Part shown: positions 1-16,327 of the stretch, in pieces
How the letters are laid out: every line of letters starts with the position of its first letter
Position numbering within the stretch: position 1 is the first letter of the stretch
From: Verrucomicrobiia bacterium
GTDB lineage: Bacteria > Verrucomicrobiota > Verrucomicrobiia > Limisphaerales > SXQI01
Assembly (NCBI GenBank): GCA_036002705.1
Contig: DASYTB010000275.1
Location: 1-32,382 of the forward strand
Direction: 5' to 3'
Length of the DNA stretch: 32,382 nt
Program-made: the position numbers and the translations under genes
Notes under the pieces: model-generated
The model's input: the letters and a program-made list of their open reading frames with translations, nothing else
Told to the model about the DNA's origin: nothing
Databases searched by the model: none

Positions 1-1017
1 ATTGGGAGTGATTCGCTTGCCCTGGAGAAGGCCGTGATACGCGCGGACGGCTTCTTCCGGGCTGATGCGGCCTTCGGTGATGAGGCGGAGCATTTCGATA
101 AAGGCCAGTTGATGCTCGGCGTTGTTGATCTTGCGGCCGAAAAGGGCAACTCGCGCGCCGTACTTTTGCGCGTCGTGGATAAGTTTGAAAGCATCGTAAG
201 TGGTGCCGGCGCTTCCGCCGAGAATGCCGACCACCAAGTTGGGATCGTATTGGGCCAGCTCTTCCATCGCTTGGGGGCCGTGATACACGATCTTCAGGAA
301 GATCGGCCGGCCAGCGTCGGACACGCCCGCGAGCGTCCGAATGATATTATCATTAATGAATTCGCCGAGCTTTTCGGGCGCAATGCCGCTAGCGACATTC
401 GGATCGAAGACTTCGAGAAAATGGCGGAATTTTTTTTGTTCGGCCTCTTCGCGAAAGGCTTTGTAAGAAAGCAACGTTTCCCGGTCTTGCGCCAGATCGT
501 TGACGAAAGTGACGGAGTAGAGGCCGAGATTCGCACCGGGGACCTCATCCATGGTGCGATCGCAATCGAGTTGACCGCATTGAATATGGTCGATGCTGGC
601 GCTGCGGAAAGGTTGGGCGGGTTCGGCCACGTAACATCCGTGACGGATCGCCCAAACGTCAGTGGTATCGTTGGCGCGCGCGGCGGGAGTAACCTGGGAG
701 TTCTTGAAGAGTCCCTCTTTGATCGAAAGTTGCTCACTGACGTAGGCGGACATGAGCATGATGTCCACGAGGCCTTGATGGACCACTTCGCGGATGATAT
801 CAAGAAACTCGGGCAGATTACGGTAGCCATATTCCTGACGGTTCCAGACTTCCGGCGAAAACCGCGCGGGCCGGGCGCCCTGGCGGGAGAGATAACCGCG
901 CGGTCCGGGCGCTCGCACGCCGAACGCCATGTCAGCATCCTTCGCGTCCGCGAGGATGAAAGCGCGCGAAGCGGGGTTGGCGCGGATTTCAGCGAGTTTT
1001 GTGTCGAGGGATTTCAT
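1..1017 (-). CDS. Partial CDS (3' end beyond window edge): class I aldolase-like TIM-barrel protein (DeoC/LacD/FbaB-like), function uncertain
   Basis: The minus-strand frame is open for all 339 codons from ATG (1017-1015) to nt 1, checked triplet by triplet. It is absent from the supplied track because it has no stop inside the window. Translation: MKSLDTKLAEIRANPASRAFILADAKDADMAFG...RPIFLKIVYHG...VVGILGGSAGTTYDAFKLIHDAQKYGARVALFGRKINN. The LK (possible Schiff-base Lys) and the C-terminal GG...GA....GR pattern resemble DeoC/LacD/FbaB class I aldolases. The family call is from memory only. Confidence 0.6.
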   Translation of the reverse strand, partial: MKSLDTKLAEIRANPASRAFILADAKDADMAFGVRAPGPRGYLSRQGARPARFSPEVWNRQEYGYRNLPEFLDIIREVVHQGLVDIMLMSAYVSEQLSIKEGLFKNSQVTPAARANDTTDVWAIRHGCYVAEPAQPFRSASIDHIQCGQLDCDRTMDEVPGANLGLYSVTFVNDLAQDRETLLSYKAFREEAEQKKFRHFLEVFDPNVASGIAPEKLGEFINDNIIRTLAGVSDAGRPIFLKIVYHGPQAMEELAQYDPNLVVGILGGSAGTTYDAFKLIHDAQKYGARVALFGRKINNAEHQLAFIEMLRLITEGRISPEEAVRAYHGLLQGKRITPN

Positions 1018-1030
1018 GTGCCAGATCGAT

Positions 1031-1540
1031 TTATGGCTGCGAGGGGTGCTCACCAACGCCCTCCAAGACCTTCCGATAAAAGGCCGCACCCATATGGAAA
1101 TTCGTTTCTGCAAGCAGCCGATCAAGAAGCGATTTCAAGTTTGTTAAGTGGCCTTCCCGTTTTGCCCGACTAAGAATACCCAGCGTTTCTGAAACTGTGA
1201 CTCCGAGATGCTCGGCGGTCGCGCGCGCGTCGGAATCATCGTTCAAAAGAACCGCTCGAAGCTCAGTCGCGAGCAGGATGGCTTCGATTTCGCCTTGCCC
1301 AAGGCGAGAGGAGGACGGCAATATGGTTTGTGAAGAACTGGGGGCCTTGCATTCGATCCAACCTTGAGTCACCGCGAGCTGAAGATTTTCTGACTCAGGT
1401 AAACCTTTTCCACCCACGGTGATTTCCTGCCAAACCGCCGCGGGCACGATGACTCGATCGTAAAGAGTGCGAAGGGGGGAGAAAAGTCCCAGCCTTGTGA
1501 GATAAATAAGCGGCGAGGTATCAGACACAACCGCCTGCAT
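1031..1540 (-). CDS. PIN-like nuclease toxin candidate (DUF3368 family)
   Basis: 169-aa ORF. The N-terminus MQAVVSDTSPLIYLTRLGLFSPLRTLYDRVIVPAAVWQEI fits the DUF3368/PIN-like pattern (D.SPLI.L......L..L.....iP..V..E). It overlaps the upstream small ORF by 20 nt. Confidence 0.72.
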   Translation of the reverse strand: MQAVVSDTSPLIYLTRLGLFSPLRTLYDRVIVPAAVWQEITVGGKGLPESENLQLAVTQGWIECKAPSSSQTILPSSSRLGQGEIEAILLATELRAVLLNDDSDARATAEHLGVTVSETLGILSRAKREGHLTNLKSLLDRLLAETNFHMGAAFYRKVLEGVGEHPSQP

Positions 1541-1781
1541 ACGTTAGATCTTGCTTGAGCATCTGCTCTGTATATTCCCGAGCCACACCGCGATCCCGCA
1601 GCAGATCCATAAAACGACCGATGTATAGTTCGGCAAACTGCGCCGCTTTGCCTGTGCTCCACTTTCCTTCGCGATACATTTCAATGGCCAGCTCAAGCTT
1701 TGCGTTGCGGCGGACTTCGTCGGCGCTCTCACCAAAGCTTCGGGCGTATTCCTCCGGAATTTCAAGAGTCACGCTGTTCAT
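1521..1781 (-). CDS. UPF0175-family antitoxin candidate
   Basis: 86-aa ORF. LELAIEMYREGKWSTGKAAQFAELYIGRFMDLLRDRGV fits the UPF0175 pattern usually paired with DUF3368. The 20-nt overlap with the toxin ORF is typical of a type II TA layout. Confidence 0.72.
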   Translation of the reverse strand: MNSVTLEIPEEYARSFGESADEVRRNAKLELAIEMYREGKWSTGKAAQFAELYIGRFMDLLRDRGVAREYTEQMLKQDLTYAGGCV

Positions 1782-1828: not shown

Positions 1829-2755
1829 TTATCCCCCTACCTTGGTTAAAGTGTCCTTGAGCGCCTTGCCGGAGTTCTGCAAGGCCATCATCTCTTTCGG
1901 CCAGAGTTTGATCTCGACGTGTTTCTGAACACCGGATCTGCCCACGACGCTGGGCACGCTCAAACAGATGTCACGAATATCGTAAGCTCCCTGGACAAGC
2001 GAGGAAACGGGCAGGAGCGTTTTTTTGTTCAGAAGCACAGCGTGGACGACTTCGCGGATCGCCACTCCCACGGCCCAACCCGCGCCGCCCTTGCGTTTAA
2101 TGACTTCGGCGCCGCTGCCTTTGGTTCGTTCGAAAACGGCATTTTGAAAACTCGGCGTGAACTCGGGCAGGCCAGCGAGTGGAAGTCCATTGACCGTGGC
2201 GCTGGACCAGATCGGGACCATTGAATCACCGTGTTCACCCAGAATGAGAGATTTCACCTGAGTGGGAGCGAGCTTCAGTTCCTCCGCGACAAAAGAGCTG
2301 AAACGAGAGGTATCCAGCATCGTGCCGAGGCCATAGACCTGTTGCCACGGCAGGCCAAGACGTTTCACGGCGAGCCGAGTCAGAATATCCACGGGATTCG
2401 AGACCACAAAGATATGGGCATCTTTTCGCATTCCCGCGGATTTGATGCTTTCGAGAATTTGATTGAAAAGCGTGACGTTCCGATTGATCAAGTCGAGCCG
2501 GGACTCATCGGGTTTGCGACGCAATCCCGCGGTGATGAGGAAAATGTCGCTGTCGGCCGCACGCGCGTAATCACCCGCGTAAATTCGCTGGTCACCGCAA
2601 AAAGCGCTGCCATGCAACAGGTCCAACGCCTCGCCTTGGGCCATATCCTGATTGGCGTCGAGGATTTGTATCTCGGCAACGAGGCCCGCACATTGTAGAG
2701 CAAACGCTGCGCACGATCCAACACGTCCGCCACCGCCTATAATTGCAACTTTCAT
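1829..2755 (-). CDS. LDH/MDH-family NAD-dependent 2-hydroxyacid dehydrogenase (last gene of BMC operon)
   Basis: 308 aa. Motifs: Rossmann MKVAIIGGGGRVG, substrate loop ITAGLRRKPDESRLDL, LDTSR, catalytic GEHGDS. It starts 4 nt after the aldolase stop. Confidence 0.9.
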   Translation of the reverse strand: MKVAIIGGGGRVGSCAAFALQCAGLVAEIQILDANQDMAQGEALDLLHGSAFCGDQRIYAGDYARAADSDIFLITAGLRRKPDESRLDLINRNVTLFNQILESIKSAGMRKDAHIFVVSNPVDILTRLAVKRLGLPWQQVYGLGTMLDTSRFSSFVAEELKLAPTQVKSLILGEHGDSMVPIWSSATVNGLPLAGLPEFTPSFQNAVFERTKGSGAEVIKRKGGAGWAVGVAIREVVHAVLLNKKTLLPVSSLVQGAYDIRDICLSVPSVVGRSGVQKHVEIKLWPKEMMALQNSGKALKDTLTKVGG

Positions 2756-2759
2756 TCAG

Positions 2760-3812
2760 CTACTTTGTTTGGCTCATTATCTGATCCGTAATCGCTCGGA
2801 CCATTGCTTCGATCTCATGGTCAGCTCCGGATGCGGGAGTTGCTTCATTTCCTGGGACGGTGCAACTTACTCCCGGACGCCAATCCGAGTTATCACAAAG
2901 TTCGCATTCTTTCAGCCCGTGACGCGGATCCGGAATACCGAGGCTCTGCTTGATCTTCAGCAAATCCTGTAACTGGGGCGTGGTCATTGATTTGGACGGC
3001 ACGCCTAATTGCGAAGCGATGAGCACCGTGTGGCAATAGGCCTCGAGGATCTCCATTTTGAAGTAGGCGTCTTCGACATTGTTGTGGCTCCAGGCGACCA
3101 CGCCGTGATTGGCCATCAGAATGGTGTTGTGTTTGTCCACGAGGTCCGCGACGAGTTTGCCCATTTCCGGAGTTCCCGGGGTTCGATAAGGCGCCACAGC
3201 GACCGACGAAAAGACCTCGTACTCGGGGATCATGCAGGGCGGCGGTGTCATTCCCGCAACTGCAAAAGCGGTGCTGTAGGGCGGATGACAATGGACTGTC
3301 GCGAGCGCGCGGGGTTGACGCAACATAATTTGGAGATGCATCAGGATTTCGCTCGTGCGCCTTTTCGCGCCGCAAAGCTGGTTGCCTTCAAAGTCCACGA
3401 AGCACATGTCTTCGGGCTTCATGAAGCCTTTGCTGACGAGCGTCGGAGTGCAGAGCGCGATCTCCTCACCCACGCGAATGGCAATATTGCCGCCGTTGCC
3501 GTCCACATAGGCGCGCTGCCAGAGGCGGCGTCCAATATCGCAGATTTGCACCTTCAGTTCGTGGATGTGCGGCGAGTTAAAGAGGGCGTCGATCTCCGCT
3601 TTCGGGCTCTTCGAGCTAAGCAGTTTGGCGGGCTGGGCCAGGGAGGCACTTGCCGGTAGGGGCTTGGCCACTCCGTTTCGATTTCCGTTCTGCCAATCGC
3701 GCAACAGCTCGCGCGCGGAAGGGGTGATAATTGCATCGCCGGGCAGGGTGCCGGGATCGCCGCCGCCGCGAAGCAATTCTTCAATATCTCTTGCACTGAT
3801 GACCTGTTTCAT
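2760..3812 (-). CDS. Class II aldolase (fuculose/rhamnulose-1-phosphate aldolase-like) with N- and C-terminal extensions; BMC signature enzyme
   Basis: 350 aa. The core (about residues 80-275) carries GNGGNIAIR, TVHCHPPY and MANHGVVAW, typical of the class II aldolase/adducin-head fold. There are roughly 75 extra residues at the N-terminus and roughly 70 at the C-terminus. The start forms an ATGA overlap with the BMC-P stop (3809-3812). Confidence 0.9.
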   Translation of the reverse strand: MKQVISARDIEELLRGGGDPGTLPGDAIITPSARELLRDWQNGNRNGVAKPLPASASLAQPAKLLSSKSPKAEIDALFNSPHIHELKVQICDIGRRLWQRAYVDGNGGNIAIRVGEEIALCTPTLVSKGFMKPEDMCFVDFEGNQLCGAKRRTSEILMHLQIMLRQPRALATVHCHPPYSTAFAVAGMTPPPCMIPEYEVFSSVAVAPYRTPGTPEMGKLVADLVDKHNTILMANHGVVAWSHNNVEDAYFKMEILEAYCHTVLIASQLGVPSKSMTTPQLQDLLKIKQSLGIPDPRHGLKECELCDNSDWRPGVSCTVPGNEATPASGADHEIEAMVRAITDQIMSQTK

Positions 3813-4114
3813 TTCGTAAAGGGCGAATAGAAAATTTCGTCGATGAGCGCGGTGTTGATGGCGTCCACGGGAGTTGGCTTTTCAAACGGCTGCGCGGCTT
3901 CGCGGCCTTCGACATAACCGATTGTCTGCCCAACACCACCGCCCAGATCGTCGTAAACCACGAGACTCGGCTCTTTCCCAGAGCCGAGCGGTTCCTGAGC
4001 GCCGCGCCGATAATCTTCGCGCGTGAAGGGTGACACAATCAGCCAGCGAGCGCCTTCGAAGGGGGGCGTCACCTGGCTCAGAATGACTCGACCAATAACA
4101 GCGCCCAGCTTCAT
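3809..4114 (-). CDS. BMC-P (EutN/CcmL-family pentameric vertex protein), divergent paralogue
   Basis: 101 aa. MKLGAVIGRVILSQV...LVVYDDLGGGVGQTIGYVEG...VDAINTALID fits the EutN/CcmL fold pattern. ATGA overlaps occur at both ends (4111-4114 and 3809-3812). Confidence 0.82.
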   Translation of the reverse strand: MKLGAVIGRVILSQVTPPFEGARWLIVSPFTREDYRRGAQEPLGSGKEPSLVVYDDLGGGVGQTIGYVEGREAAQPFEKPTPVDAINTALIDEIFYSPFTK

Positions 4115-4389
4115 ACCGGCACTCCAGGCTCGTTCTCGTCCACGATTCCGACAATCAGCCAGCGCACCGGGCTTTTGTCGTCGCCTACAGTCCTGCGCGC
4201 CGACAAACCATCCGACGAAATGATCACTCGTTGATGGATTCCCGCCCCGTGCGAATCAATGGCCACCTGCGGCGCGCCTTCGGGTTCGCCGGCGGAGCCG
4301 ATCGGCTGGCAGACGACAAGGCGCCAACCTTGCAAGCTGGGGTGCTTGCGGGTGGCGACGACGTTTCCTTCAACGCGAGCTAGGTACAT
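4111..4389 (-). CDS. BMC-P (EutN/CcmL-family vertex protein)
   Basis: 92 aa. MYLARVEGNVVATRKHPSLQGWRLVVCQP...AIDSHGAGIHQRVIISSDG...VRWLIVGIVD is the classic EutN/CcmL pattern. Confidence 0.9.
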   Translation of the reverse strand: MYLARVEGNVVATRKHPSLQGWRLVVCQPIGSAGEPEGAPQVAIDSHGAGIHQRVIISSDGLSARRTVGDDKSPVRWLIVGIVDENEPGVPV

Positions 4390-4397
4390 ACGGTTCC

Positions 4398-4505
4398 AAA
4401 TCCGAAGGTCGAAATCCGAATACCGAAGATTGAAGAGCTAAACTCATTGTGTTCCAATTTGGATTTCGACGTTGTTTCCGCATTCGGATTTCCGACCTCG
4501 GGTTT
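4398..4505. repeat. Imperfect inverted repeat (24-nt arms, about 60-nt loop) in the aldehyde dehydrogenase / BMC-P spacer
   Basis: 4398-4421 (AAATCCGAAGGTCGAAATCCGAAT) versus 4482-4505 (ATTCGGATTTCCGACCTCGGGTTT): 22 complementary positions with two 1-nt bulges and one mismatch. A further unit, TTGGATTTCGAC, sits at 4459-4470. Confidence 0.65.
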
Positions 4506-6001
4506 TAATAAATCCTCAAATTATCGACCATTACACACCGTCGCACCCGGCAGAAGGTTTTTGGATTCGTGACGCCTTCGCCAGTCGGTGTGGCAATCGA
4601 GTAGCTCAGATAGCCTTCTCCGCCCAGGCCAAGTCCGGCCATGCAGGGGCCATTCTTAATGAAGAGCGTCGTGTCCATGGCGCGGGCCATCGCGGTCATG
4701 TTCTCGACATCGTGCGAATGGATGATGCTCGTGTGTTTGTAATTGTGCTCGGCTTCGAGAGAATGCTGGATGCCTTCCTCAATGCTTTTCACCCGCACCA
4801 CGGGAATGAAAGGCATCATCTGTTCCTCGACGACGAAGGCGTGATTCGCGTCCGTCTCGGCGAAGAGCAGTTGGGTGCCGGAAGAAATATTCACTCCGGC
4901 GGCGCGGGCCAGGACGGCAGGATCTTTGCCGATGAAATCCTTGTTCAAGACGGTGTGGCCGCAACCATGCGCGCCTTGTCCTTCTTTAAAGGTGAAGACG
5001 GCCTTGGTTAGCGCCTCCAGTTGGGCTGAGTTGAGGCGCACCGCGCCATTCTTTTCCATCTCTGACATCAACTTGTCGGCGATGTTATCGAGCGCGAAAA
5101 CTTCCTTCTCGCCGATGCAGAGGAGGTTGTTATCGTAGGATGCGCCCTGGATGATCGCGCGAGCGGCGCGCTTCATGCACGCCGTGTCATCCACGAGCAC
5201 GGGGGGATTTCCAGGACCGGCACAGATCGCTCGTTTGCCGGTTTGCATCGCCGCTTTGACGACACCAGGTCCGCCCGTGACGCAAAGGAGACGCACCGCT
5301 TCGTGCTTGCAGATCGCATCGAAGCTCTCGAGCGTCGGTTTCTCGACAATGCAGGCGACATTCTCGATCCCTGTCTCGCGATGGATTGCTTCATTATAGG
5401 CGCGGACGGCCGTGGCTGCGCAACGCGCGGCGGCGGGATGAGCATTGAAGACGACGGTATTACCCGCCGCGACGATATTGACGATATTCCCGCTGAGCGT
5501 GGGGATGGAATGAGTTGAGGGCGTGATCGCGGCCACAACTCCAAAAGGAGTGTATTCCTCCAGGGTAATACCGTGATCACCGCTGCGGCCATCGGGTCGA
5601 AGCCAATCCACGCCCGGGACCAGTTTGATAATCTGAAGCTTCTCGATCTTGTGATCGAGCCGTCCGATTTTAGTTTCGTCTAATTCAAGGCGGCCCCAGG
5701 CTTCCGCGTTTTTCTCCGCCAGACCCTTGACGATTTCTTCGACTTTGCGGCGCGCCGCGACTCCTTTCTGCCGAAGCTGTTCGAAAGCCTCTTGCGCCGC
5801 GACGCAAGCCTCGTTCGCGTCCTGGAAGACGCCGAATTTCCCCCGGAGCGCGGTCCCCGAAGCACGACCTTTTCCGTTGCAGCCGCAATCGTGTTGCCCG
5901 GGCGCGGAACCTGGCGGCAACGCTATCGGCGCGCCATTAAGGCGACTAAGGACTTCCGTGACAACGTCACGGATCAAAGTTTCGTTGACAGATGAATTCA
6001 T
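4505..6001 (-). CDS. CoA-acylating aldehyde dehydrogenase (PduP/EutE-like) with N-terminal encapsulation-peptide-like helix
   Basis: 498 aa. ALDH fold with catalytic Cys in NNLLCIGEKEVF and the GNPPVLVD motif. The N-terminus ETLIRDVVTEVLSRL is followed by a Pro/Gly-rich linker. Confidence 0.92.
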   Translation of the reverse strand: MNSSVNETLIRDVVTEVLSRLNGAPIALPPGSAPGQHDCGCNGKGRASGTALRGKFGVFQDANEACVAAQEAFEQLRQKGVAARRKVEEIVKGLAEKNAEAWGRLELDETKIGRLDHKIEKLQIIKLVPGVDWLRPDGRSGDHGITLEEYTPFGVVAAITPSTHSIPTLSGNIVNIVAAGNTVVFNAHPAAARCAATAVRAYNEAIHRETGIENVACIVEKPTLESFDAICKHEAVRLLCVTGGPGVVKAAMQTGKRAICAGPGNPPVLVDDTACMKRAARAIIQGASYDNNLLCIGEKEVFALDNIADKLMSEMEKNGAVRLNSAQLEALTKAVFTFKEGQGAHGCGHTVLNKDFIGKDPAVLARAAGVNISSGTQLLFAETDANHAFVVEEQMMPFIPVVRVKSIEEGIQHSLEAEHNYKHTSIIHSHDVENMTAMARAMDTTLFIKNGPCMAGLGLGGEGYLSYSIATPTGEGVTNPKTFCRVRRCVMVDNLRIY

Positions 6002-6104
6002 AGATTCTCAACTACGAATGAACACAAATTCACACAAAGAACTGCAATGATTCTCCGCGTAAGTTAGCGCATGCCCGGCAGCAGATTCGTGTTTATTCAC
6101 GGTT

Positions 6105-6416
6105 TTAGGTTTTCGCGTTGTAGAGCGTCTTCCCCAGCACATCGACGGTATCAACAATCCCGATGATCACCGCATCGACCGGCGCTTCCTTCAGGCCGGG
6201 CGCGAGCCGGGCGGAACTGCCCTGGCAAAAGAGGACCATCTCGCCGATTCCCGCGCCGAGGCTATCCACCGCGACGATAGTGTTTGAGCCGGGGCGGAAT
6301 TTCGCTGGATCCTTTTCGTCCACCAGTTGAGGGCGGAGCAGGAGCAGCTTGCGGCCTTCCATGCCCGGATCCTTTTTCGTGGAAACGACCGAACCTTCAA
6401 CTTTGGCGAGGAACAT
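6105..6416 (-). CDS. BMC-P (EutN/CcmL-family vertex protein)
   Basis: 103 aa. MFLAKVEGSVVSTKKDPGMEGRKLLLLRP...AVDSLGAGIGEMVLFCQGSSAR...VDAVIIGIVD. Confidence 0.9.
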   Translation of the reverse strand: MFLAKVEGSVVSTKKDPGMEGRKLLLLRPQLVDEKDPAKFRPGSNTIVAVDSLGAGIGEMVLFCQGSSARLAPGLKEAPVDAVIIGIVDTVDVLGKTLYNAKT

Positions 6417-6420
6417 GGTA

Positions 6421-6526
6421 AAGTCCGAAATTCGAAGTCCGAAAGCCGAGAAAATACCGAAAACCGAGGTGCCCGAAGCTGCCGTCTCTGCAGGAGCGGA
6501 TTTCGGGTTTCGGATTTCGGATTTCC
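6421..6526. repeat. Inverted array of degenerate TCCGAAA units versus four tandem GGRTTTC heptamers in the BMC-H / BMC-P spacer
   Basis: 6498-6525 is GGATTTC GGGTTTC GGATTTC GGATTTC. 6421-6479 holds opposite-sense units (GTCCGAAA, TTCGAA, GTCCGAAA, GCCGAG, ACCGAAAA, CCGAGG, CCCGAAG). The two runs can pair into a long imperfect stem. Confidence 0.65.
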
Positions 6527-6545
6527 AGAGACATTCTGGGTTAGC

Positions 6546-6830
6546 TTACTTCTTTTTCGGCAGCACTTGCTCCACATCTGTGTGCGGACGCGCGATAACG
6601 TGGACGCTGACCAGTTCGCCTTTGATGGCTTTGACGGCTTGCGCGCCGGCGTCGGTGGCGGCTTTGACGGCGGCGACATCGCCGACGACTACGGCCGTCA
6701 CGAGCGCGTTGCCAACCTGGGTCATCGGGCCGGCCAGTTCCACGTTGGCCGCTTTGAGCATGGCGTCGGTCGCTTCCACGAGCGCCACCAGGCCGCGGGT
6801 TTCAATCATTCCAATTGCTTGTTGTGCCAT
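6546..6830 (-). CDS. BMC-H shell protein (PduA/EutM/CcmK-type, single PF00936-like domain)
   Basis: 94 aa. [32 protein letters not shown]...[19 protein letters not shown]...VHVIARPH. It starts 8 nt after the ackA stop. Confidence 0.92.
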
Positions 6831-6838
6831 AAATCTGC

Positions 6839-8131
6839 TTAGTTTCGTGTTTTGAGTTTCAAGTTCCGAGATTCGTTCGTTAAGAGACGTCGCACTTCGC
6901 GCGCAACGACGAGTTCTTCGTTGGTCGGGATGACCATGATTTTGACTCGCGCGCCATCCCGGCTGATCACCGCTTCTTCGACGCGTGTTTTGGCGTTCTT
7001 CTCCGAATCCAACTCAATTCCGAGTTGATCCAGATCGGCGCAGATGGCTGCGCGGATATCAGGATTATTTTCGCCGATGCCAGCCGTGAACACGAGCGCG
7101 TCGGTCCCATTCATTTGCGCGAGGAAAGCGCCGATCCAATGTTTCACCGACGCAACAAAGACATCGATCGCGAGCTTCGCCTTCTCGTTGCCTTGAGCGG
7201 CAGCGCTCTTGATATCACGAAAATCATTTGAGAGGCCGCTGATTCCTTTGAGCCCTGATTCCTTGCAAAGCTGCCGCTCCACCTCTTCCAGCGACAGGCC
7301 GAGCGTTCGCATCACAAAAGGAATCGCGAAACTATCAAGTTCGCCAACTCGGTTGTTGTTGGGAAGACCAGATTGCGGACTCATGCCCATGCTGTTGCCG
7401 ACAGAAACGCCGTTAAAAATGCCGGTGATACTCGAACTTCCGCCGAGGTGGCAGGAGATCACGCGGAGGTTAGGACTGCCCTTCTCAAATTCTTTCCGAA
7501 ACTCCAACTCAAAATCATTCGACGTATAAAGATTTTGCGCCCGCTGGGCGACATCCTCGCGCCCGAGCAGTTGAGCGCTCCGCTCAGCGATGAATTTGTG
7601 GCTCGCGCCATGATATCCCCAACGGCGAACACCGGCTTCGGTCCATTGATCCGGCACGGCGTAGCGCATGATGGCTTCTGGCGCGTATTGGTGGCAGGCT
7701 GTCTCAAACAGCCCAACCAGCGGCACGCCGGGCATGCGTTTCGCAAAAAGGCGAATTCCGACAATGTAAGGAGGATTATGCGCGGGTGCGATGCCATTGA
7801 ATGCCTCCATCGCTTTAAGCACCGTCTCATCGAGACGCACGCAGCCGGTCACTCCCTTGGCGGCCACAGTCTTGAAGCCAACCGCCGCGAGATCTTTTTC
7901 GCTATGGATATGGCCGGAATCGAGGAGTTGCGCCAGGCATTCCTCAATCGCTTTCGGATAATCGCTCACGCGCTCGAAGCCGCCCTTGTGGAGCATCTGC
8001 TCCGGGCCGTTCGAGAGCTCAAACAGCCGCCATTTCAGCGAGGTCGAGCCAATATTCGCGACGAGGACTTTCACGCCAGGTGAAAAAGGATTATTGCAGA
8101 AGCCACTTGCCGAGTGTCGGCAGTCCATCAT
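6839..8131 (-). CDS. ackA: Acetate/propionate-family kinase
   Basis: 430 aa as tracked. [27 protein letters not shown] and FTAGIGEN are acetate kinase hallmarks. The tracked ATG (8131) overlaps the upstream BMC-H gene by 41 nt. An in-frame GTG at 8074 directly precedes [14 protein letters not shown] and is an alternative start. Confidence 0.9.
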
Positions 8132-8372
8132 GCGGGCGAGGGATCACCTGCACACTGACGACGGAACCAACCTGAGCTGCGGCGGCGGCCCCGGCATCCG
8201 TCGCTGCCTTGACGCTGGCCACGTCGCCGCGGAAAAAGGCAGTGACATAGCCGCTTCCAATTTTTTCCCAACCGGTAAAGGTAACGTTCGCCGCTTTCAG
8301 GGCGGCATCCGTGGCTTCGAAAAGAGCGCAAAGCCCTTTGGTTTCGATCATGCCAATTGCTTGTTGAGACAT
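8091..8372 (-). CDS. BMC-H shell protein with canonical KIGSG pore loop
   Basis: 93 aa. [61 protein letters not shown]. Confidence 0.92.
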
Positions 8373-8396
8373 ATAAAATCGATTTTTAGTTTGTTC

Positions 8397-8693
8397 TTAC
8401 TTTTTGACCGCTGCCGGAACCGCATCGCCGAGAAAGATTTTGCTCAGGTCTTCGTGCGCCCGTGCGATGACGTGCGCCGCAACCAACTCGCCCACCTTGC
8501 CCGCAGCCTTGGCACCCGCGTCCACAGCCGCTTTTACGCTCGCGACGTCGCCGCGGCAGATGACGGTGATCAAGCCGCCGCCGATGGGGATGGTTTTGGA
8601 AATGGTCACGTTCGCGGCTTTCGCCATGGCGTCGGTGGCTTCGACGCTGGCGGTGTAACCTTTCGTTTCAATCATGCCGATTGCTTCGCTCAT
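8397..8693 (-). CDS. BMC-H shell protein
   Basis: I take the internal ATG at 8693 as the start ([29 protein letters not shown]...[15 protein letters not shown]), giving 98 aa. The tracked longer ORF (to 8789) would add 32 non-homologous residues and overlap the pduL 3' end by 65 nt. Confidence 0.85.
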
Positions 8694-8724
8694 ATTTTTA
8701 TCGTTTTTGGTTCGCTCCGAAAAA

Positions 8725-9405
8725 TCATTTAAGTAGTTGGCAGGGAGTGTCTGGCTGGAGATCGCAGGCGTTGCCTTCGTCGGTGTCAATATGGACTTCC
8801 AGCTTGAAGCTCTTGTCCACGCGCGCCAGCATCTTCTCTAGAGTGATCGCGCACGGCCCGCCAATTTTCAGGCGCATCTCGTCGCCGTTTTTCACTCCGT
8901 AAAACTCCGCGTCGGCGGGGCTCATATGGACGTGACGCAAGGCACGGATCACGCCATTGGGCATCTCAAAAAATCCGTTCGGTCCCATCAACATGCCGCC
9001 AGGAGTGCCCTCAATATTTCCGGAAGGCCGGAGTGGGATATCGAAGCCGAGCGCAATGGAATCCGTATAGGCCAGCTCCACCTGGTTCAATGTCCGGCAC
9101 GGTCCCAAGATGCGAAGATTGGAGATGACCCGACTGCGCGGGCCAATCAAGGTCAGCGACTCTTTGGCGGCGAATTGCCCCTCCTGGTAAAGCCACTTGT
9201 GGACCTGAAGCTGGTGTCCTTTTCCGAAAAGAGCTTCAACCGCTTCCTGCGTGAGATGGCAATGGCGGGCGCTCACATTCACGACAAGCGGATTGGGCGC
9301 TTGCGCGGCGCGGGGCAAAGGCTTCCCTAAACGCTGGTAAACCGTCTGGCGGACCAGATGTTCAATTACGGCGCGCGGGGCTTGACTGGGCAACACAACG
9401 GCCAT
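8725..9405 (-). CDS. pduL: PduL-type phosphotransacylase, first gene of BMC operon
   Basis: 226 aa. Two PduL repeats ([20 protein letters not shown] and [18 protein letters not shown]). N-terminal helix [16 protein letters not shown]. Confidence 0.9.
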
Positions 9406-9509
9406 CTCTACGACTCATTTTGAAAGAAAATGAATTTAAGTCAATAAAAATCTTTCAAATATTTTCATTATCGTCCATAATCTACCAATATCTATCAAAA
9501 CCGCTTAAA
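9406..9509. promoter_or_regulatory. AT-rich divergent control region between pduL operon and DeoR gene, with 8-bp inverted repeat
   Basis: The only strongly AT-rich stretch I noticed in the window. It contains a perfect inverted repeat, TTGAAAGA (9420-9427) / TCTTTCAA (9451-9458). Candidate sigma70-like elements are TTGAAA (9420-9425), a 17-nt spacer, then AATAAA (9443-9448) on the plus strand. The mirror TTGAAA (9458-9453) lies on the minus strand. These promoter calls are speculative. Confidence 0.5.
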
Positions 9510-10421
9510 ATGAAGGCTGAAGAACGCCGGAAACGGATTCAGGAGTACCTTTCGAAGGCGGAGTTCGCCTCTCTTGAGGAGCTGTCCAGGCATGTTTCGG
9601 CTTCGCCTTCCACCATCCGGCGGGATCTGAACCTGTTAGAGAGTGGCGGAAATATTCGGCGAACGCACGGTGGCGCTTGTCTCGTGAACCTGCGCTCGGA
9701 TGATTACGTTTTTGCCCAACGAGAAACGGTTCAACTTCTCGAGAAAGAGGCGATTGCTCGTGCCTGCGCCCAATTGATCCAGCCGGGCCAGAGCGTGATT
9801 ATTGACGCCGGGACGACGGCTTTCCAGGTAGCGCGCCAACTCGAGGATAAAGCATTACAGATCATCACGAACTCACTGCCGGTGGCGAATTTCTTTGCCT
9901 CGACTCCGAACGTCGAAGTCATTGTCTCGGGAGGTGTGATTTATCCCCGACTCGGAGTGCTGGTTGGGCCTTTGGCCGTGGAAGTTTTCACCAGGACGCA
10001 TGCCGACGTCGCCATCATGAGCGGCGGCGGGATTACGCCGGAAGGCGTAACCAATTCTCACGCCCTGCTGATCGACATTCAACGAGCCATGATCGAAGGG
10101 GCCAGCCGCGTCATTTTCTGCTTCGACCACACCAAAGTCGGTCGCCGTTCCGTCGCGCATCTTTGCGATCTGGCCAGCATTGACACGGTGGTGACCGATG
10201 CCGGCGCACCGCCGGAGATAGTGGCCGCGCTGCGCCAAGCCGGTTTGGAAGTCTTGCTGGCAGGCGAAACGACCTCGCTGGTCCAGTCGCCGGAAAGCGA
10301 ATTATCCGACTGTGAGCCTTCCAAAGACAACGCTTTGAGTCCTTCTCCTTCGAACAAGCCTGCAGCCGAGCCTGTCGCCTCCACTACTGGTGATCTGAGC
10401 GGTGGAATGAGTTGGGATTAA
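9510..10421 (+). CDS. DeoR-family transcriptional regulator (HTH + sugar-phosphate-binding domain) with low-complexity C-terminal tail
   Basis: I take ATG 9510 as the start (MKAEERRKRIQEYLSKAEFASLEELSRHVSASPSTIRRDLNLLESGGNIRRTHGGA, the canonical DeoR N-terminus). The tracked TTG start at 9420 would read through the AT-rich control region. Confidence 0.88.
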   Translation: MKAEERRKRIQEYLSKAEFASLEELSRHVSASPSTIRRDLNLLESGGNIRRTHGGACLVNLRSDDYVFAQRETVQLLEKEAIARACAQLIQPGQSVIIDAGTTAFQVARQLEDKALQIITNSLPVANFFASTPNVEVIVSGGVIYPRLGVLVGPLAVEVFTRTHADVAIMSGGGITPEGVTNSHALLIDIQRAMIEGASRVIFCFDHTKVGRRSVAHLCDLASIDTVVTDAGAPPEIVAALRQAGLEVLLAGETTSLVQSPESELSDCEPSKDNALSPSPSNKPAAEPVASTTGDLSGGMSWD

Positions 10422-10475: not shown

Positions 10476-11900
10476 TCAGCTTCCGCCCAAAGCTTTGAAG
10501 ACCGCGACGAGGGCGGTGGCGGTGCGGGTTTGGCTTTGGGCGAATTGATCTTCGGTTACGAGTTGGGCCCGCTCGGCATCGAGCACGACGAGGAAATCGA
10601 CAGCGCCGGCATCGTAGCGCTGGCGGGCGAGGACGGCGGCGATCCGGCTATCGGCGACGCTTTGCTGGAGGTAACCAAGACGCTGTTGTTCGCGGCCGAA
10701 AGCGACGAGGGCATTTTCGGCTTCTTCGAGACTGGTCAGGACGGTGCGCTCGTATTGGGCCAGATAGGACTCGGCGCGGGCGTTGGCGGCCTGGATGCGC
10801 GCGCGAACGTGTCCGAGGTCAAGGGCGGCCCAGGTGATGCGCGGGCCAAAAGACCAGGCTTCGCCGTTCGCGGTTCCAAGGGCGCTGAAATTCGAGGCTT
10901 CCCAGCCGAACTGACCGTTTAAGGTGACGCGCGGGAAAAGATCGGCGACCGAAACCCCAATATTCGCGGTGGCGGCGGCGAGGTTCCGTTCCGCAATGCG
11001 AATGTCAGGCCGGCGGCGGAGCAATTCATTCGGATCGCCGATATTCACAACGTTCGGCAGCGCGGGCAAAGAGCCGGGCGGCGTCAATTCCGCCCGAAGG
11101 GCAGTCGGCTGTTGGCCGGTGAGAACGCCGAGCCGGTGGATCGCTTCAGCTACAGAGGTCTCGAGCGGAGGAATGATGGCCAGAGTATTGTTCAGAATGG
11201 AACGCGCGCGCGCCACGTCCAGTTCCGTGCCGCGACCACCTTCGAGGCGAGCGCGGGTGATATTGACCGTTTCCTGTTGGTTGGTGACGTTTTTGTAGGC
11301 GACAGCGAGTTCATTTTGCAGGCCGCGCAATTCAAAATAGTTCCGCGCGATCTCGCTGGTGAGGGAAACGCGGACGGCTTCGAGCGACGCTTCAGATGCC
11401 TCCATCGCCGCGGTGCGCGATTCCACCGAGCGGCGGACTCGGCCGAATAAATCGAGCTCCCAAAGCGCGTCGAAGCCGGCATCGAAAAATGAGGCCCGAA
11501 GCGGTTGCGAAGTGAACCCCGGAAACGAAGCCGGGCTGAGTTGCTCCTTGGTGTAACCAGCGGTGGCTTGAGGAACGGGCAGCAGATCGAATTGCGCCTG
11601 CCTTCGCAGAGCGCGCGCCTCGTTGAGATTCGCGGCCGCGATGCGAAGATCGTGATTATTCGTGAGGGCGGTTTGGACCAGGCGGATCAGGAGCGGATCG
11701 TTGAAGCTGCTCCACCATTGAACGAGCGGCGTATTGGTTGAGTACTGGGCTTCGCCGACACGGCCGAATTCGGCGCTGACCGTCGTTTTCGGCTGGTGAT
11801 AATCCGGCCCCACCGCGCAAGCGGCCAGCAATGAAAGGAGAGCCGACCCCGTTATTATTTGTAATTTCGCGCGCATCTGATTAACCCTTGTCTCACGCAA
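10476..11900 (-). CDS. RND efflux outer-membrane factor lipoprotein (NodT/OprM family)
   Basis: 474 aa. Lipobox LLAACAVGPDYHQP and two repeated OEP-type halves. It overlaps the RND pump stop by 8 nt. Alternative start: Met9 at 11876. Confidence 0.9.
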   Translation of the reverse strand: MRETRVNQMRAKLQIITGSALLSLLAACAVGPDYHQPKTTVSAEFGRVGEAQYSTNTPLVQWWSSFNDPLLIRLVQTALTNNHDLRIAAANLNEARALRRQAQFDLLPVPQATAGYTKEQLSPASFPGFTSQPLRASFFDAGFDALWELDLFGRVRRSVESRTAAMEASEASLEAVRVSLTSEIARNYFELRGLQNELAVAYKNVTNQQETVNITRARLEGGRGTELDVARARSILNNTLAIIPPLETSVAEAIHRLGVLTGQQPTALRAELTPPGSLPALPNVVNIGDPNELLRRRPDIRIAERNLAAATANIGVSVADLFPRVTLNGQFGWEASNFSALGTANGEAWSFGPRITWAALDLGHVRARIQAANARAESYLAQYERTVLTSLEEAENALVAFGREQQRLGYLQQSVADSRIAAVLARQRYDAGAVDFLVVLDAERAQLVTEDQFAQSQTRTATALVAVFKALGGS

Positions 11901-14900
11901 TTTGTTCCTGGCCGTGAATGTGCGAGACAGCCTCGCGGCGAATCTCGCGTTTGCCTTCGGTAATTCGCCGGATCACGACATAGAAAACCGGCGTGAGAAA
12001 AATCCCGAAGAGCGTCACACCCAACATGCCGCTGAAGACCGCGGTTCCGAGAACGCGCCGCATCTCCGCGCCCGCGCCGGTGGAAAGCACCAGCGGAATC
12101 ACGCCGAAGATAAACGCGAACGACGTCATCAGGATCGGGCGCAAACGCAAGCGGCTGCCTTCAATGGCGGCCTCGGTTCGGGAAAGCCCCGCCTCCTGCC
12201 GTTGCCGCGCGAACTCGACAATGAGAATGGCGTTTTTGCAGGCAAGCCCGACCAGCACCACAAAACCAATTTGCGTGAAGATATTGTTCTCCATGCCACC
12301 GATGTAAACGCCGGCCAGCGCGAACAAAATGCAGAGCGGCACGATCAAGATGATCGCCAGCGGCAGCGACCAGCTCTCATAAAGCGCCGAGAGCGTGAGG
12401 AAGACGAAGAGAACGCAAAGGGGAAAGATGTAAACGGCTGTGTTGCCCGCGAGAATTTCCTGCAGCGTGAGTTCGGTCCACTCAAAACCCATCGAAGCCG
12501 GAAGCGTTCGAGCGGCCAAATCCTCCATGATTTTGATGGTCTCGCCCGAGCTTACACCGGGCGCGCCGTTGCCAGTTAATTCAGAGCTCGAGAACATATT
12601 GTAGCGAACCACCTTGTCTGGTCCGGTGGTCGGCCTGACATCGACCACGGAACCGAGCGGGACCATTCCACCCTGGGCATTGTGGGTCTTGAGCTGAAGG
12701 ATGTCGCTAGGTTCGCGGCGAAACGGAGCGTCGGCCATGGCGGTAACCTGGTAGGTGCGACCGAAAAGGGTCAGGTCGTTCACGTAAAGAGAACCGAGAT
12801 AAATTTGGAGCGTTTCGTAAATATCACTCAAGGCGACGGACATAGCCTTGGCGCGCGGTTTGTTCACCGTAACCTGAAGCTGGGGGGTGTTGGCGCGAAA
12901 CGAGGTAAGAACGCTTTGCAGCCGGTGGTCCTGGTTGGCCGCGTTCATCAGGGCGTAAGTGGCGGTCTGCAGTGCTTGCAAACCGGCGCCTCCGCGATCC
13001 TGGATCTGCATCTTAAAACCGCCGACAATCCCGAGACCGTTCACGGCGGGCGGCGGGAAAACACCGCAAAATGCCTCCTGGATCACGGCGAGCCGCCGGC
13101 GCAAATCCGCCACGATCTTCGTCGCGGTCAGCCCTTTCTTCATCCGCTCGTCGAAATCATCAAGAATGATGAAGATCGTGCCGGCGTTCGGACTCGAGGT
13201 GAGGCTGATCGGAGAGAGGCCGGCGAGGTCGATCGTCGCTTTAATTCCGGGCGTTTCGCGGGCGATTTTGCTGAACCGATCCACGACGTCGCCCGTGCGC
13301 TCCAGCGAAGCAGCGTCCGGCAATTGCACCATGGCGGCGACGTAACCCTTGTCCTGTTGTGGAATGAAACCGCTGGGGACGATTTTGAACCCAAAATAGG
13401 TCAGCACGAGTAACCCCGCATAAACAAGCAAAGCCACCGCCGCGAACCGAATGAGCCGGGCGACCACGGACGCGTAGGTGTTCGCGGTCCACGAAAAGGC
13501 GCGATTGAAGCCGCGGAAAAACCAGCCGAAGGCCCGGTCGAGAAAACGAGTGACCAGGTCGTGCCGCGCGCCGTGCGGTTGGAGCAACAGAGCGCAGAGC
13601 GCGGGGCTGAGGGTGAGCGAATTAAAAGCGGAAATGACGGTCGAAATTGCGATGGTCAAGGCAAACTGGCGATAGAATTGCCCGGTAATGCCCGACATAA
13701 ATGCCGTTGGAACGAACACCGCCGCCAGCACAAGGCCCACCGCCACGACCGCGCCGCTGACTTCATCCATCGCTTTATGAGTCGCTTCTTTTGGCGAAAG
13801 CCCCAGTTCAATATTCCGCTCGACATTCTCAACGACGACGATCGCGTCATCGACCACAATGCCAATCGCGAGCACCAATCCGAAGAGTGAGAGGTTGTTT
13901 AGGGAAAACCCAAGGGCATGCATCGCAGCAAACGTGCCGATCAGCGAAACCGGCACGGCCAAAAGCGGGATGATCGAAGCGCGCCAGCTCTGGAGAAAAA
14001 TAACCACGACGAGGACCACGAGCAGGATCGCTTCGATCAAGGTGTGGATGACAGCCCGGATCGACTCGCGCGTGAAGCCAGTGGTATCGAACACAATGCG
14101 ATAGTCAAGACCGGGAGGGAACCGTTTCTTCAGTTGCTCCATGGCGTCATGGACGGCGTCGGAGGTCTCGATTGAATTTGACCCGGGCAACTGGAAAATT
14201 CCGAGGGAGGCATTCGGCTGGCCATTCAGCTTGCTGTCCATACTGTAGTCACGAGCGGCCAATTCAATCCGCGCGACGTCCGCGAGACGGGTGATCTGCC
14301 CGTCCGGCGTGCTCTTGACGATGATATTGCGGAACTCATCTTCGCTGACGAGACGGCCTTCGGCGTTGACGGTGAATTGAAAAGGCACGCCGGCGCTCAT
14401 GGGTGGTTGGCCGATGATGCCCGCCGCAACCTGGGTATTTTGCTCGCGAATTGCGTTGACGACGTCGCTCGCGGTCAAACCCATCCAGGCAACCTTTTCC
14501 GGGTCGAGCCAAACGCGCATGCTGTAATCCCTCGCCCCGAACACCGTCACGTTGCCGACGCCCGGGAGCCGCGAAAGCACGTCCTTCACTTGCAGATAGG
14601 AGTAGTTATCAATGTAAAGTTTATCGAGGCTCCCGTCGGACGAGATGAGATTCACGACAATCGTGATATCTGGTGAACGTTTGGCGGTGGTGACACCCAA
14701 TCGCCGCACTTCCTCAGGCAGGCGCGGTGTGGCCACGGCCACGCGGTTCTGGACCTGGACCTGTGCTTTGTCGATGTCCGTGCCGAGCTTGAAGGTCACC
14801 GTCAGAGTCATGCTGCCGTCCGCCGCGCATTGGGAGGACATATAAAGCATGTTTTCGACGCCATTAACCTCTTGTTCGATGGGCGTTGAAACGGTTTCCG

Positions 14901-15078
14901 CCAGCACTCGTGGGGTCGCCCCGGGATAACGCGCGGTGACGATCACGGTGGGCGGAACCACGTCCGGAAATTGCGCGATAGGCAATTGGATCAGCGCGAG
15001 GGCGCCAACGATCACGATCACAATCGAAAGGACCGACGCGAAAATTGGCCGGTTAATAAAGAAATGAGCGAAACGCAT
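11893..15078 (-). CDS. RND (HAE1, AcrB/MexB-like) inner-membrane efflux pump
   Basis: 1061 aa. MRFAHFFINRPIFASVLSIVIVIVGALALIQLPIAQFPDV is the canonical AcrB-family N-terminus. Length and TM-rich segments fit. Confidence 0.95.
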   Translation of the reverse strand: MRFAHFFINRPIFASVLSIVIVIVGALALIQLPIAQFPDVVPPTVIVTARYPGATPRVLAETVSTPIEQEVNGVENMLYMSSQCAADGSMTLTVTFKLGTDIDKAQVQVQNRVAVATPRLPEEVRRLGVTTAKRSPDITIVVNLISSDGSLDKLYIDNYSYLQVKDVLSRLPGVGNVTVFGARDYSMRVWLDPEKVAWMGLTASDVVNAIREQNTQVAAGIIGQPPMSAGVPFQFTVNAEGRLVSEDEFRNIIVKSTPDGQITRLADVARIELAARDYSMDSKLNGQPNASLGIFQLPGSNSIETSDAVHDAMEQLKKRFPPGLDYRIVFDTTGFTRESIRAVIHTLIEAILLVVLVVVIFLQSWRASIIPLLAVPVSLIGTFAAMHALGFSLNNLSLFGLVLAIGIVVDDAIVVVENVERNIELGLSPKEATHKAMDEVSGAVVAVGLVLAAVFVPTAFMSGITGQFYRQFALTIAISTVISAFNSLTLSPALCALLLQPHGARHDLVTRFLDRAFGWFFRGFNRAFSWTANTYASVVARLIRFAAVALLVYAGLLVLTYFGFKIVPSGFIPQQDKGYVAAMVQLPDAASLERTGDVVDRFSKIARETPGIKATIDLAGLSPISLTSSPNAGTIFIILDDFDERMKKGLTATKIVADLRRRLAVIQEAFCGVFPPPAVNGLGIVGGFKMQIQDRGGAGLQALQTATYALMNAANQDHRLQSVLTSFRANTPQLQVTVNKPRAKAMSVALSDIYETLQIYLGSLYVNDLTLFGRTYQVTAMADAPFRREPSDILQLKTHNAQGGMVPLGSVVDVRPTTGPDKVVRYNMFSSSELTGNGAPGVSSGETIKIMEDLAARTLPASMGFEWTELTLQEILAGNTAVYIFPLCVLFVFLTLSALYESWSLPLAIILIVPLCILFALAGVYIGGMENNIFTQIGFVVLVGLACKNAILIVEFARQRQEAGLSRTEAAIEGSRLRLRPILMTSFAFIFGVIPLVLSTGAGAEMRRVLGTAVFSGMLGVTLFGIFLTPVFYVVIRRITEGKREIRREAVSHIHGQEQIA

Positions 15079-15109
15079 ATTTTTCTTCCGCCTTTTTGCG
15101 TGTAGTGGG

Positions 15110-16306: not shown

Positions 16307-16327
16307 CTGCTCACCTTTGAGCGCCGC

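Follow-up and report, generated by a model that had tools for sequence, protein, structure and literature searches.

A PVM-type bacterial microcompartment locus on a verrucomicrobial contig, with a conserved additional gene at its downstream end

Bacterial microcompartments (BMCs) of the Planctomycetes/Verrucomicrobia (PVM) type are marked by a PF00596 aldolase, their signature enzyme; ancillary components are an acetate kinase and a DeoR regulator, and a protein of the lactate/malate dehydrogenase (LDH/MDH) family is presumed to recycle NAD+ (Axen 2014, PMC4207490). A later catalogue lists 285 such loci, restricted to Planctomycetes and Verrucomicrobia and described as carrying two genes for hexameric shell proteins (BMC-H) and a triplet of pentamer genes (BMC-P); its name table assigns PvmB to the phosphotransacylase, PvmD and PvmE to BMC-H, PvmG to the kinase, PvmH, PvmK and PvmM to BMC-P, PvmJ to the aldehyde dehydrogenase, PvmL to a PF02441-related protein, PvmN to the aldolase and PvmO to the LDH-family enzyme (Sutter 2021, PMC8217296). 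In marine Verrucomicrobiota, PVM loci are known that have three genes each for BMC-H and BMC-P, and metaproteomes of algal blooms contained their proteins (PMC8857213); in a Limisphaera culture growing on rhamnose, microcompartments were visible (PMC13608581). Here we describe a locus of this kind on contig DASYTB010000275.1 of a Verrucomicrobiia bacterium. The window, that is the whole stretch analysed, comprises 32,382 nt of the forward strand, with the operon genes on the minus and the DeoR gene on the plus strand. We propose with considerable confidence that a Limisphaerales-like verrucomicrobium has in this region the genes for a PVM-type metabolosome, which would act by a mechanism of the Planctopirus limnophila type.

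Comparison of the locus with described PVM systems

Family calls were made on the list of open reading frames (ORFs) with Pfam gathering cut-offs and curated NCBIfam cut-offs. The regulator belongs to the DeoR/GlpR family (9510..10421, plus strand; PF08220 53.2 bits, PF00455 160.1 bits). Divergent from it, the minus-strand genes begin with a PduL-type phosphotransacylase (PvmB equivalent, 8725..9405; PF06130 227.6 bits over residues 42-216; PRK15070 231 bits, cut-off 209), followed by BMC-H1 (8397..8693; PF00936 86.1 bits; pore loop IGGG, edge motifs KAAN / ARAH), BMC-H2 (8091..8372; 95.3 bits; pore loop IGSG, edge motifs KAAN / PRPH), an acetate/propionate-family kinase (PvmG equivalent, 6839..8131; PF00871 313 bits; TIGR00016 311.2 bits, cut-off 293.4) and BMC-H3 (6546..6830; 81.1 bits; pore loop VGNA). 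Then come the vertex protein BMC-P1 in the PvmH position (6105..6416; PF03319 102.2 bits), a CoA-acylating aldehyde dehydrogenase (AldDH, PvmJ equivalent, 4505..6001; PRK15398 599.9 bits, cut-off 403; PF00171 86 bits), BMC-P2 in the PvmK position (4111..4389; PF03319 98.7 bits), a divergent BMC-P3 in the PvmM position (3809..4114; 52.8 bits), the class II (Zn) aldolase as signature enzyme (PvmN equivalent, 2760..3812; PF00596 142.1 bits over residues 89-263) and an LDH/MDH-family NAD dehydrogenase (PvmO equivalent, 1829..2755; PF00056 121.5 bits, PF02866 108 bits). A first-pass annotation made from the letters alone had named all of these components and suggested a profile search; every one of them exceeded its Pfam cut-off, the shell ORFs lying above the PF00936 and PF03319 thresholds.

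Its classification as PVM is borne out as well: composition and order match the published descriptions, from which we assign the locus to this already described type, and also the best related loci. To find the latter, the class II aldolase was scanned against one genome per GTDB species. Close relatives were encoded in at least 584 species genomes, and the best 80 of them (68-82% aldolase identity) define the related loci L001-L080, which are nearly all located in metagenome-assembled genomes (MAGs) of Verrucomicrobiota/Limisphaerales/Pedosphaera type, a few of them under evidently wrong bin names. According to tblastn synteny, the order DeoR (opposite strand), PduL, H, H, AckA, H, P, AldDH, P, P, aldolase is invariant in these best 80 loci where the flank suffices, and in all of these cases DeoR is transcribed divergently from PduL. 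Because the same order recurs, we regard the locus as a common, strongly conserved unit in this lineage; it is an ordinary and abundant organelle type, already described, in another MAG. The host is a Limisphaerales-like MAG of the Verrucomicrobiae, with which the flanking DUF1501 and PSD1/PSCyt2 genes agree, and at the level of the order it falls into one group with the 80 related loci.

Read against the catalogue name table, the gene order of the window runs alphabetically through the pvm letters B, D, E, G, H, J, K, M, N, O. As far as the P. limnophila system (Erbilgin, McDonald & Kerfeld 2014) is summarised in PMC4207490 and PMC8217296, it shares with the window the aldolase PvmN, PvmJ, PvmB, PvmG and PvmO, the DeoR regulator, a triplet of BMC-P genes (PvmH/K/M) and single-domain BMC-H proteins (PvmD/E). 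By the same summaries, the window differs in a third BMC-H gene between the kinase and the first pentamer gene, in a conserved gene (gene X, below) and a toxin-antitoxin-like pair downstream, and in a host of a different phylum. The Verrucomicrobiota loci (Akkermansiaceae/Puniceicoccaceae MAGs, PMC8857213; Lentimonas; Limisphaera, PMC13608581) have three BMC-H and three BMC-P genes, an aldolase, an AldDH and a dehydrogenase as in the window, and nothing substantive differs. The three BMC-H genes counted in the first pass were confirmed; the catalogue gives two for the PVM type, and three is the number reported from marine Verrucomicrobiota (PMC8857213). Peculiar to the window are five instead of three repeats in the candidate operator, the joint presence of the LDH-family gene and the toxin-antitoxin-like pair, and the lineage-specific sequences of its intergenic hairpins.

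The shell gene set is simple. A tblastn search of the window with all locus proteins returned three BMC domains and three EutN domains, nothing further of either kind and no tandem-domain BMC-T, as had been noted before, and PduS was found in the window neither by this search nor by the Pfam scan. The absence of BMC-T had also been taken as a trait of PVM systems. It is absent here, but this is not defining, since the catalogue tree lists a BMC-T in one PVM main locus from Phycisphaeraceae. Of all proteins of the locus, BMC-H3 is conserved best, with a median identity of 91% to its relatives. BMC-P1 and BMC-P2 are 40% identical, and BMC-P3 has no BLAST-level similarity to either, which is consistent with three distinct pentamer proteins from the three clades termed purple, grey and orange.

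From PduL to the LDH-family gene, the intergenic gaps measure 31, 24, 16 (or a 41-nt overlap), 8, 129, 103, 115, -4, -4 and 4 nt, and the gaps of 0-130 nt with two ATGA overlaps, one at either end of BMC-P3, had thus been given as computed from the ORF list. Some gene ends deserve comment. The ATG start of BMC-H1 sits inside a 130-aa ORF. For the kinase, GTG at 8074 is the more likely start, and the first 19 residues read from 8131 are not conserved in relatives. Its last ~13 codons run through a tandem array of 7-nt units (6841-6875; five copies of AGTTTCG as read on the plus strand), and because this 13-residue tail is unaligned in most relatives, the end of the kinase ORF looks repeat-derived. 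DeoR starts with ATG at 9510, corresponding to the deposited form of 303 aa, and a TTG at 9420 merely opens the ORF; its C-terminal tail of ~50 aa is of low complexity and not conserved.

N-terminal encapsulation peptides on phosphotransacylases have been published, and microcompartment class II aldolases carry a C-terminal one behind a linker of 23-81 residues (PMC4594438). In the window, PduL has an N-terminal extension of 41 aa outside the Pfam coverage, with an amphipathic pattern and a Pro-rich linker. AldDH, whose catalytic-Cys motif reads NNLLCIGEKE, possesses a long N-terminal extension composed of the amphipathic segment ETLIRDVVTEVLSRL and a linker; this segment resembles the published PVM encapsulation-peptide profile (consensus sELIerIVrEVLrRLra). 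The aldolase consists of an N-terminal extension of ~85 aa, a catalytic core (85-286), a linker and the amphipathic C-terminal segment HEIEAMVRAITDQIMSQ; 87 residues lie C-terminal to the PF00596 domain and end in the amphipathic HEIEAMVRAITDQIMSQTK. We read the terminal amphipathic peptides of PduL, AldDH and aldolase as encapsulation peptides; the C-terminal extension of the aldolase matches the published linker and peptide rule.

The aldolase core aligns to FucA-type structures and retains the E/HxH/NHG metal-site motifs. Residues 1-350 are conserved, and the alignment starts at residue 1 in 79 of 80 relatives. Its N-terminal extension (residues 1-88, window 3549-3812, ISARDIEELLRGGGDPGTLPGDAIITPSARELLRD...) is thus likewise conserved and gave no match in Pfam or among PDB sequences; it may be similar to the N-terminal motif of EutQ-type proteins. 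An identification of this extension with the catalogue model HMM02441_01.PVM was rejected, as the model is an encapsulation-peptide profile resembling the AldDH N-terminus.

Gene X and the LDH/MDH-family gene at the downstream end

All eleven co-directional genes of the first-pass annotation are present, but the string continues past 1829. It proceeds with a toxin-antitoxin-like pair (1031..1781, minus strand) of a UPF0175 protein (1781-1521; PF03683 66.4 bits) and a PIN/DUF3368 protein (1540-1031; PF11848 37.6 bits), and then with gene X (1..1017, minus strand), a conserved ORF that runs off the contig end at residue 339. The locus had been called complete; this does not hold, as its 12th conserved gene, at 1017-1, is truncated.

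Gene X was found by clustering the ORFs downstream of the aldolase or LDH-family gene in related loci, which yielded one dominant family; the window copy is 90% identical to the one downstream in L001. When X was added to the synteny analysis, it followed the operon in 68 of 76 related loci: directly after the aldolase in 32, after the LDH-family gene in 30, and after the UPF0175/PIN pair (in one case UPF0175 only) in six. In the remaining eight it was absent despite enough flank. Median identity to the window copy was 83% for X, compared to 77% for AldDH and 71% for the aldolase. X also lies directly after the aldolase in a Planctomycetes contig (L094), and it follows the aldolase in a lineage of 60% identity (L091). 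Gene X is part of the locus and adds to the annotated coordinates as a 12th conserved gene.

The pair between the LDH-family gene and X is inserted co-directionally. It occupies the same slot, from the last enzyme gene to X, in five related loci (L028, L054, L057, L065 and L066), and L043 has UPF0175 alone. With identities of 37-68%, these cases suggest recurrent or ancient residence of a toxin-antitoxin-like pair at this junction.

X had no match in Pfam, including PF01791; NCBIfam matches reached just E = 1e-3, far below cut-off, and all database names of its relatives read 'hypothetical protein'. No X-like protein is mentioned in the component table of the Sutter 2021 catalogue or in the literature searched. 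An AlphaFold2 model built from a diverse alignment had a mean pLDDT (per-residue model confidence) of 81, compared to 53 with 40 near-identical sequences. Foldseek matches of this model in the PDB were LsrF, ADH synthase, an archaeal class I fructose-bisphosphate (FBP) aldolase, LacD and a sulfohexulose-1-phosphate aldolase (E-values 1e-8 to 1e-5), all best matches belonging to the DeoC/LacD/FbaB class I aldolase superfamily. Target-normalised template modelling (TM) scores were 0.7-0.79 for LsrF, ADH synthase and the archaeal FBP aldolase and ~0.5-0.6 for LacD-type enzymes. A profile of the diverse X family matched LsrF (E = 6e-6) over the loops of beta7-beta8 that bind phosphate, GG...GR(K/N)I, and a profile of close relatives gave only a chance match among PDB sequences. 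A candidate Schiff-base lysine, Lys242 (FLKIVYHG), assigned by motif resemblance, is conserved in 29 of 34 sequences; other residues at the barrel end are conserved too. X probably is a protein of class I aldolase fold and an additional encapsulated sugar-phosphate lyase.

The microcompartment-linked forms of X have ~420-435 aa and end in a variable linker and a tail DGxPDFxxMxxxxRLxYxxxRLxRxFG, which is predicted to be helical (pLDDT >80) and resembles an encapsulation peptide. Linker and tail occur only in microcompartment-linked copies, including those of L091 and L094. Homologues of ~340 aa without this tail and without shell genes nearby (L081, L089) have as neighbours genes for FGGY kinases and sugar ABC transporters, for a class II aldolase or for a DeoR regulator. 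One homologue of 330 aa, in a genome of 5.7 Mb, lies in an unrelated-looking neighbourhood.

Among described enzymes, X comes closest in fold to E. coli LsrF (3-hydroxy-5-phosphonooxypentane-2,4-dione thiolase) and to the ADH synthase of M. jannaschii (E ~1e-8, target-normalised TM 0.72), and LsrF is the only significant match to its sequence profile. X differs from both by an identity of just 11-14%, a barrel ~70 residues longer, a conserved insertion at ~42-63 and another genomic context. With the PF01791 DeoC/LacD class I aldolases that are the signature of SPU (sugar-phosphate utilisation) microcompartments, X shares, by its model, the superfamily fold and, as is the case for many of them, a terminal extension resembling an encapsulation peptide. 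Unlike the SPU aldolases, however, it remains below PF01791, its extension is C-terminal instead of N-terminal, and it stands beside a class II aldolase and not a PF02502 RpiB.

The LDH/MDH-family protein aligns end to end with T. maritima LDH (residues 1-306) and has no terminal extension. At the position of the specificity-determining Gln102 of that enzyme it carries an Arg, within the motif LRRKPDESR; of 32 homologues linked with related loci, 31 keep this motif. According to the classical Q102R experiment, Arg102 reportedly turns an LDH into an MDH. Arg109, Asp168, Arg171 and His195 are kept, Thr246 is replaced by Gly, and there is an extra Arg101. The protein passes the MDH subfamily cut-off only (283.8 versus 283) and does not reach that of the L-LDH equivalog TIGR01771 (288.5 versus 303.55 bits). 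By its sequence, it looks like an MDH-type 2-hydroxyacid dehydrogenase and an optional accessory of the locus. Its published role as lactaldehyde reductase is weakened by the MDH-type sequence together with the patchy occurrence of the gene.

Candidate regulatory elements between the genes

We aligned 53 related DeoR-PduL spacers, anchored on a conserved TTGAC box, and obtained the consensus TTTGGAAGATTTTGGAAGATTTTGCAAGAtaTTTgTTGACa...TttCAaAAtctgNCAAAA. In most of the 53 relatives, three direct repeats of TTTGGAAGAT type, phased at 10 bp, lie directly upstream of the box. The window, with a spacer of 104 nt (9406..9509), and its closest relatives have five such repeats (TTTGrWAGAt type, ~9451-9500). 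Two inverted copies (~9418-9437) follow downstream of the box, over the spacer and -10 region. The conserved TTGACT box is located at 9444-9439, and a consensus scan, which was used only for placing this box, sets the -35/-10 elements of the operon at 9444-9417; a promoter-like site for deoR (9454-9481) falls inside the repeat array. Four of the seven matches to the repeat motif in the 32-kb window are in this spacer. We consider the repeats a candidate operator array, to which DeoR would bind.

Three of the internal gaps can fold into hairpins. The two longest inverted repeats of the window are found in the gap after AldDH, before BMC-P2 (4390..4504, 115 nt; I1, the longest, arms 4398-4427 and 4476-4505), and in the gap between BMC-H3 and BMC-P1 (6417..6545, 129 nt; I2, an imperfect hairpin with arms 6421-6448 and 6497-6524). 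In both, arms of ~28-30 nt consist of ~7-nt tandem units (GAAATCC / GGATTTC) around a 48-nt loop. The AldDH/BMC-P2 gap folds with -38.8 kcal/mol (z = -3.3; none of 200 shuffles as stable), the BMC-H3/BMC-P1 gap with -40.6 kcal/mol (z = -2.0). The gap between BMC-P1 and AldDH (6002..6104, 103 nt) contains a weaker hairpin with CACGAAT-type arms (-28.2 kcal/mol, z = -1.5), which is not significant alone. Apart from one match with a single mismatch, the GAAATCC unit is confined to the operon gaps in the window. A gap of at least 60 nt follows BMC-H3 in 53 of 63 related loci (median fold z = -2.8), and relatives have 'stuttering' hairpins at the same gaps built from other units (CACGAAA, GGAGTGNT, TTCAAAC, TTAAACG). 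It is plausible that these hairpins attenuate or uncouple expression of the pentamer genes, whose products are needed at far lower copy number than the hexamers. Scans of the whole window with Rfam (gathering thresholds) and ARAGORN for tRNAs gave no matches.

Proposed mechanism, alternative readings and flanking genes

According to our proposal, the whole operon would most likely be transcribed as one unit from the promoter in the DeoR-PduL spacer. DeoR would bind the 10-bp repeat array, which flanks the operon TTGAC box and overlaps its own promoter, and repress both promoters until a sugar phosphate relieves the repression. L-fuculose-1-phosphate and/or L-rhamnulose-1-phosphate, made elsewhere in the genome, would be cleaved by the encapsulated class II aldolase to dihydroxyacetone phosphate (DHAP) and lactaldehyde. 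[quoted passage not shown] Long hairpins after BMC-H3 and around AldDH would probably reduce expression of the pentamer genes downstream or uncouple it; gene X would probably be a further encapsulated cargo and the LDH/MDH-family gene an optional accessory. This pathway, proposed in the first pass in the same form, equals the published PVM model, except that it omitted NAD+ recycling, for which the presumed LDH-family gene is lacking in over half of the related loci.

Could the locus represent another aldolase-containing type? PVM-like/GRM5, MIC4, MUF2, MUF3 and ACI systems (Sutter 2021) share a PF00596 aldolase with C-terminal and an AldDH with N-terminal encapsulation peptide, often a phosphotransacylase, and in part acetate kinase and a BMC-P triplet, and our PVM call was made from composition, order and descriptions. 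By description, however, these types have BMC-T/PduS-PduT, glycyl-radical modules or other dehydrogenases, as well as another gene order and other phyla. MIC4 and MUF3 carry a BMC-T pair of PduS/PduT type, of which the window has neither BMC-T nor PduS; MUF2, in Gemmatimonadetes, has BMC-T or a fused BMC-H; in ACI, a satellite locus holds the AldDH, and the dehydrogenase is of PF00389; and PVM-like loci are of GRM5-like order in Firmicutes. The window has an LDH-family gene, a DeoR gene, a verrucomicrobial host and the order PvmB to PvmO, so that we consider membership in another type very improbable. For the PVM-type fucose/rhamnose metabolosome that we prefer, several points still have to be counted on the negative side. 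Compared to P. limnophila as summarised in the sources above, no PvmL-type (PF02441-related) gene stands between the second and third pentamer genes. The aldolase shares only ~30% identity with the FucA enzymes that have been characterised and does not reach the cut-off of any NCBIfam equivalog, for which reason its specificity rests on orthology and not on sequence. Pfam scans of the other large ORFs revealed neither a sugar isomerase of canonical type nor an FGGY kinase nor a sugar transporter in the 32 kb, as had been stated before, and promoter-like and terminator-like matches in the window are not enriched versus shuffles. The substrate, induction by fucose or rhamnose and shell formation are predicted by homology with the P. 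limnophila system, in which the organelle reportedly is required for use of L-fucose, L-rhamnose and fucoidan. Finally, the NAD+-recycling step is weak, as the LDH-family gene follows the aldolase in 33 of 78 related loci and is absent from the other 45, and the enzyme it encodes keeps the 2-hydroxyacid catalytic set with an MDH-type Arg102.

This raises the question if the LDH/MDH-family enzyme reduces lactaldehyde at all. It may instead be a malate/oxaloacetate dehydrogenase that reoxidises the NADH of AldDH by means of a trans-shell dicarboxylate shuttle, or a lactate/2-hydroxyacid dehydrogenase of the cytosol whose step follows those in the organelle. The complete set of Arg102, Arg109, Asp168, Arg171 and His195, the motif retained in the linked homologues, the profile scores and the lack of a terminal extension speak for such a role. 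On the other hand, published models assign the alcohol-dehydrogenase role to this protein on the ground that nothing else in the locus is able to recycle NAD+ (PMC4207490), and alcohol dehydrogenases of other microcompartments likewise lack encapsulation peptides (PMC4594438). Moreover, Gly246 and the extra Arg101 are unusual, so the specificity is not readable from one residue, and, with 45 of 78 loci lacking the gene, the core function seems able to do without it. We see this alternative as a serious possibility that falls somewhat short of probable. For gene X, it is conceivable, though rather doubtful, that the organelle has two aldolases, X being a second encapsulated, aldehyde-releasing, Schiff-base DHAP-dependent class I aldolase that uses the same shell and core. 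Just as tentatively, X would then cleave ketose-1-phosphates unsuited to the class II enzyme, e.g. other stereoisomers of 6-deoxyhexulose-1-phosphate. Such a role is in line with its presence in 68 of 76 loci at a conservation above that of aldolase and AldDH, its position after the aldolase also in L091 and L094, the fold matches and the LsrF profile match at the phosphate-binding loops, the conserved Lys242 and barrel-end residues, and the linker and helical tail that distinguish microcompartment-linked copies from the tailless ~340-aa forms beside sugar genes. Against it stand the low identity to known class I aldolases (11-14%) and the assignment of Lys242 by motif resemblance. LsrF itself is a thiolase and not an aldolase, so the chemistry of X could differ; the window copy is truncated, and its tail is therefore not observed here; and there are longer homologues on contigs where microcompartment genes are absent. 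In a more general form, we put forward with reserve that most PVM loci of Verrucomicrobiota and at least some of Planctomycetes encode X as a second cargo enzyme of divergent LsrF/FbaB-like fold with its own C-terminal encapsulation peptide, which would act on a sugar phosphate in the shell and be either a second aldolase that generates an aldehyde or a CoA-dependent lyase like LsrF. If true, the substrate range or chemistry of the organelle would be broader than in the fucose/rhamnose model with a single aldolase.

PVM organelles, which presumably trap the toxic lactaldehyde, are the presumed route by which abundant Verrucomicrobiota and Planctomycetes of soil, freshwater and marine habitats use fucose- and rhamnose-rich polysaccharides of algae and plants, and one more example adds little to this. 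Worth carrying forward are the uncatalogued gene X (~90% of related loci), the candidate DeoR operator array, the positionally conserved hairpins and the optional MDH-like PvmO; gene X, the operator array and PvmO bear on the full cargo list, regulation and redox balance of PVM systems.

By Pfam, the other large ORFs of the window encode RND-type efflux components with a TetR regulator, a beta-lactamase/NamZ fusion, PurH, a BamB-like protein, a hydrolase, a GFO/IDH/MocA oxidoreductase and the DUF1501 and PSD1/PSCyt2 proteins. The RND efflux operon (10476-17020; outer-membrane factor, RND pump and membrane-fusion protein, with TetR) adjoins the DeoR gene, is apparently unrelated to the microcompartment locus, and its neighbourhood with the locus is not kept in relatives. 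A 240-aa ORF without Pfam family (17108-17830) separates the TetR gene from the beta-lactamase/NamZ gene. The latter (18004-20301) is a single ORF of 765 aa in which a beta-lactamase-family domain (PF00144) is fused to the N- and C-terminal domains of a NamZ exo-beta-N-acetylmuramidase.

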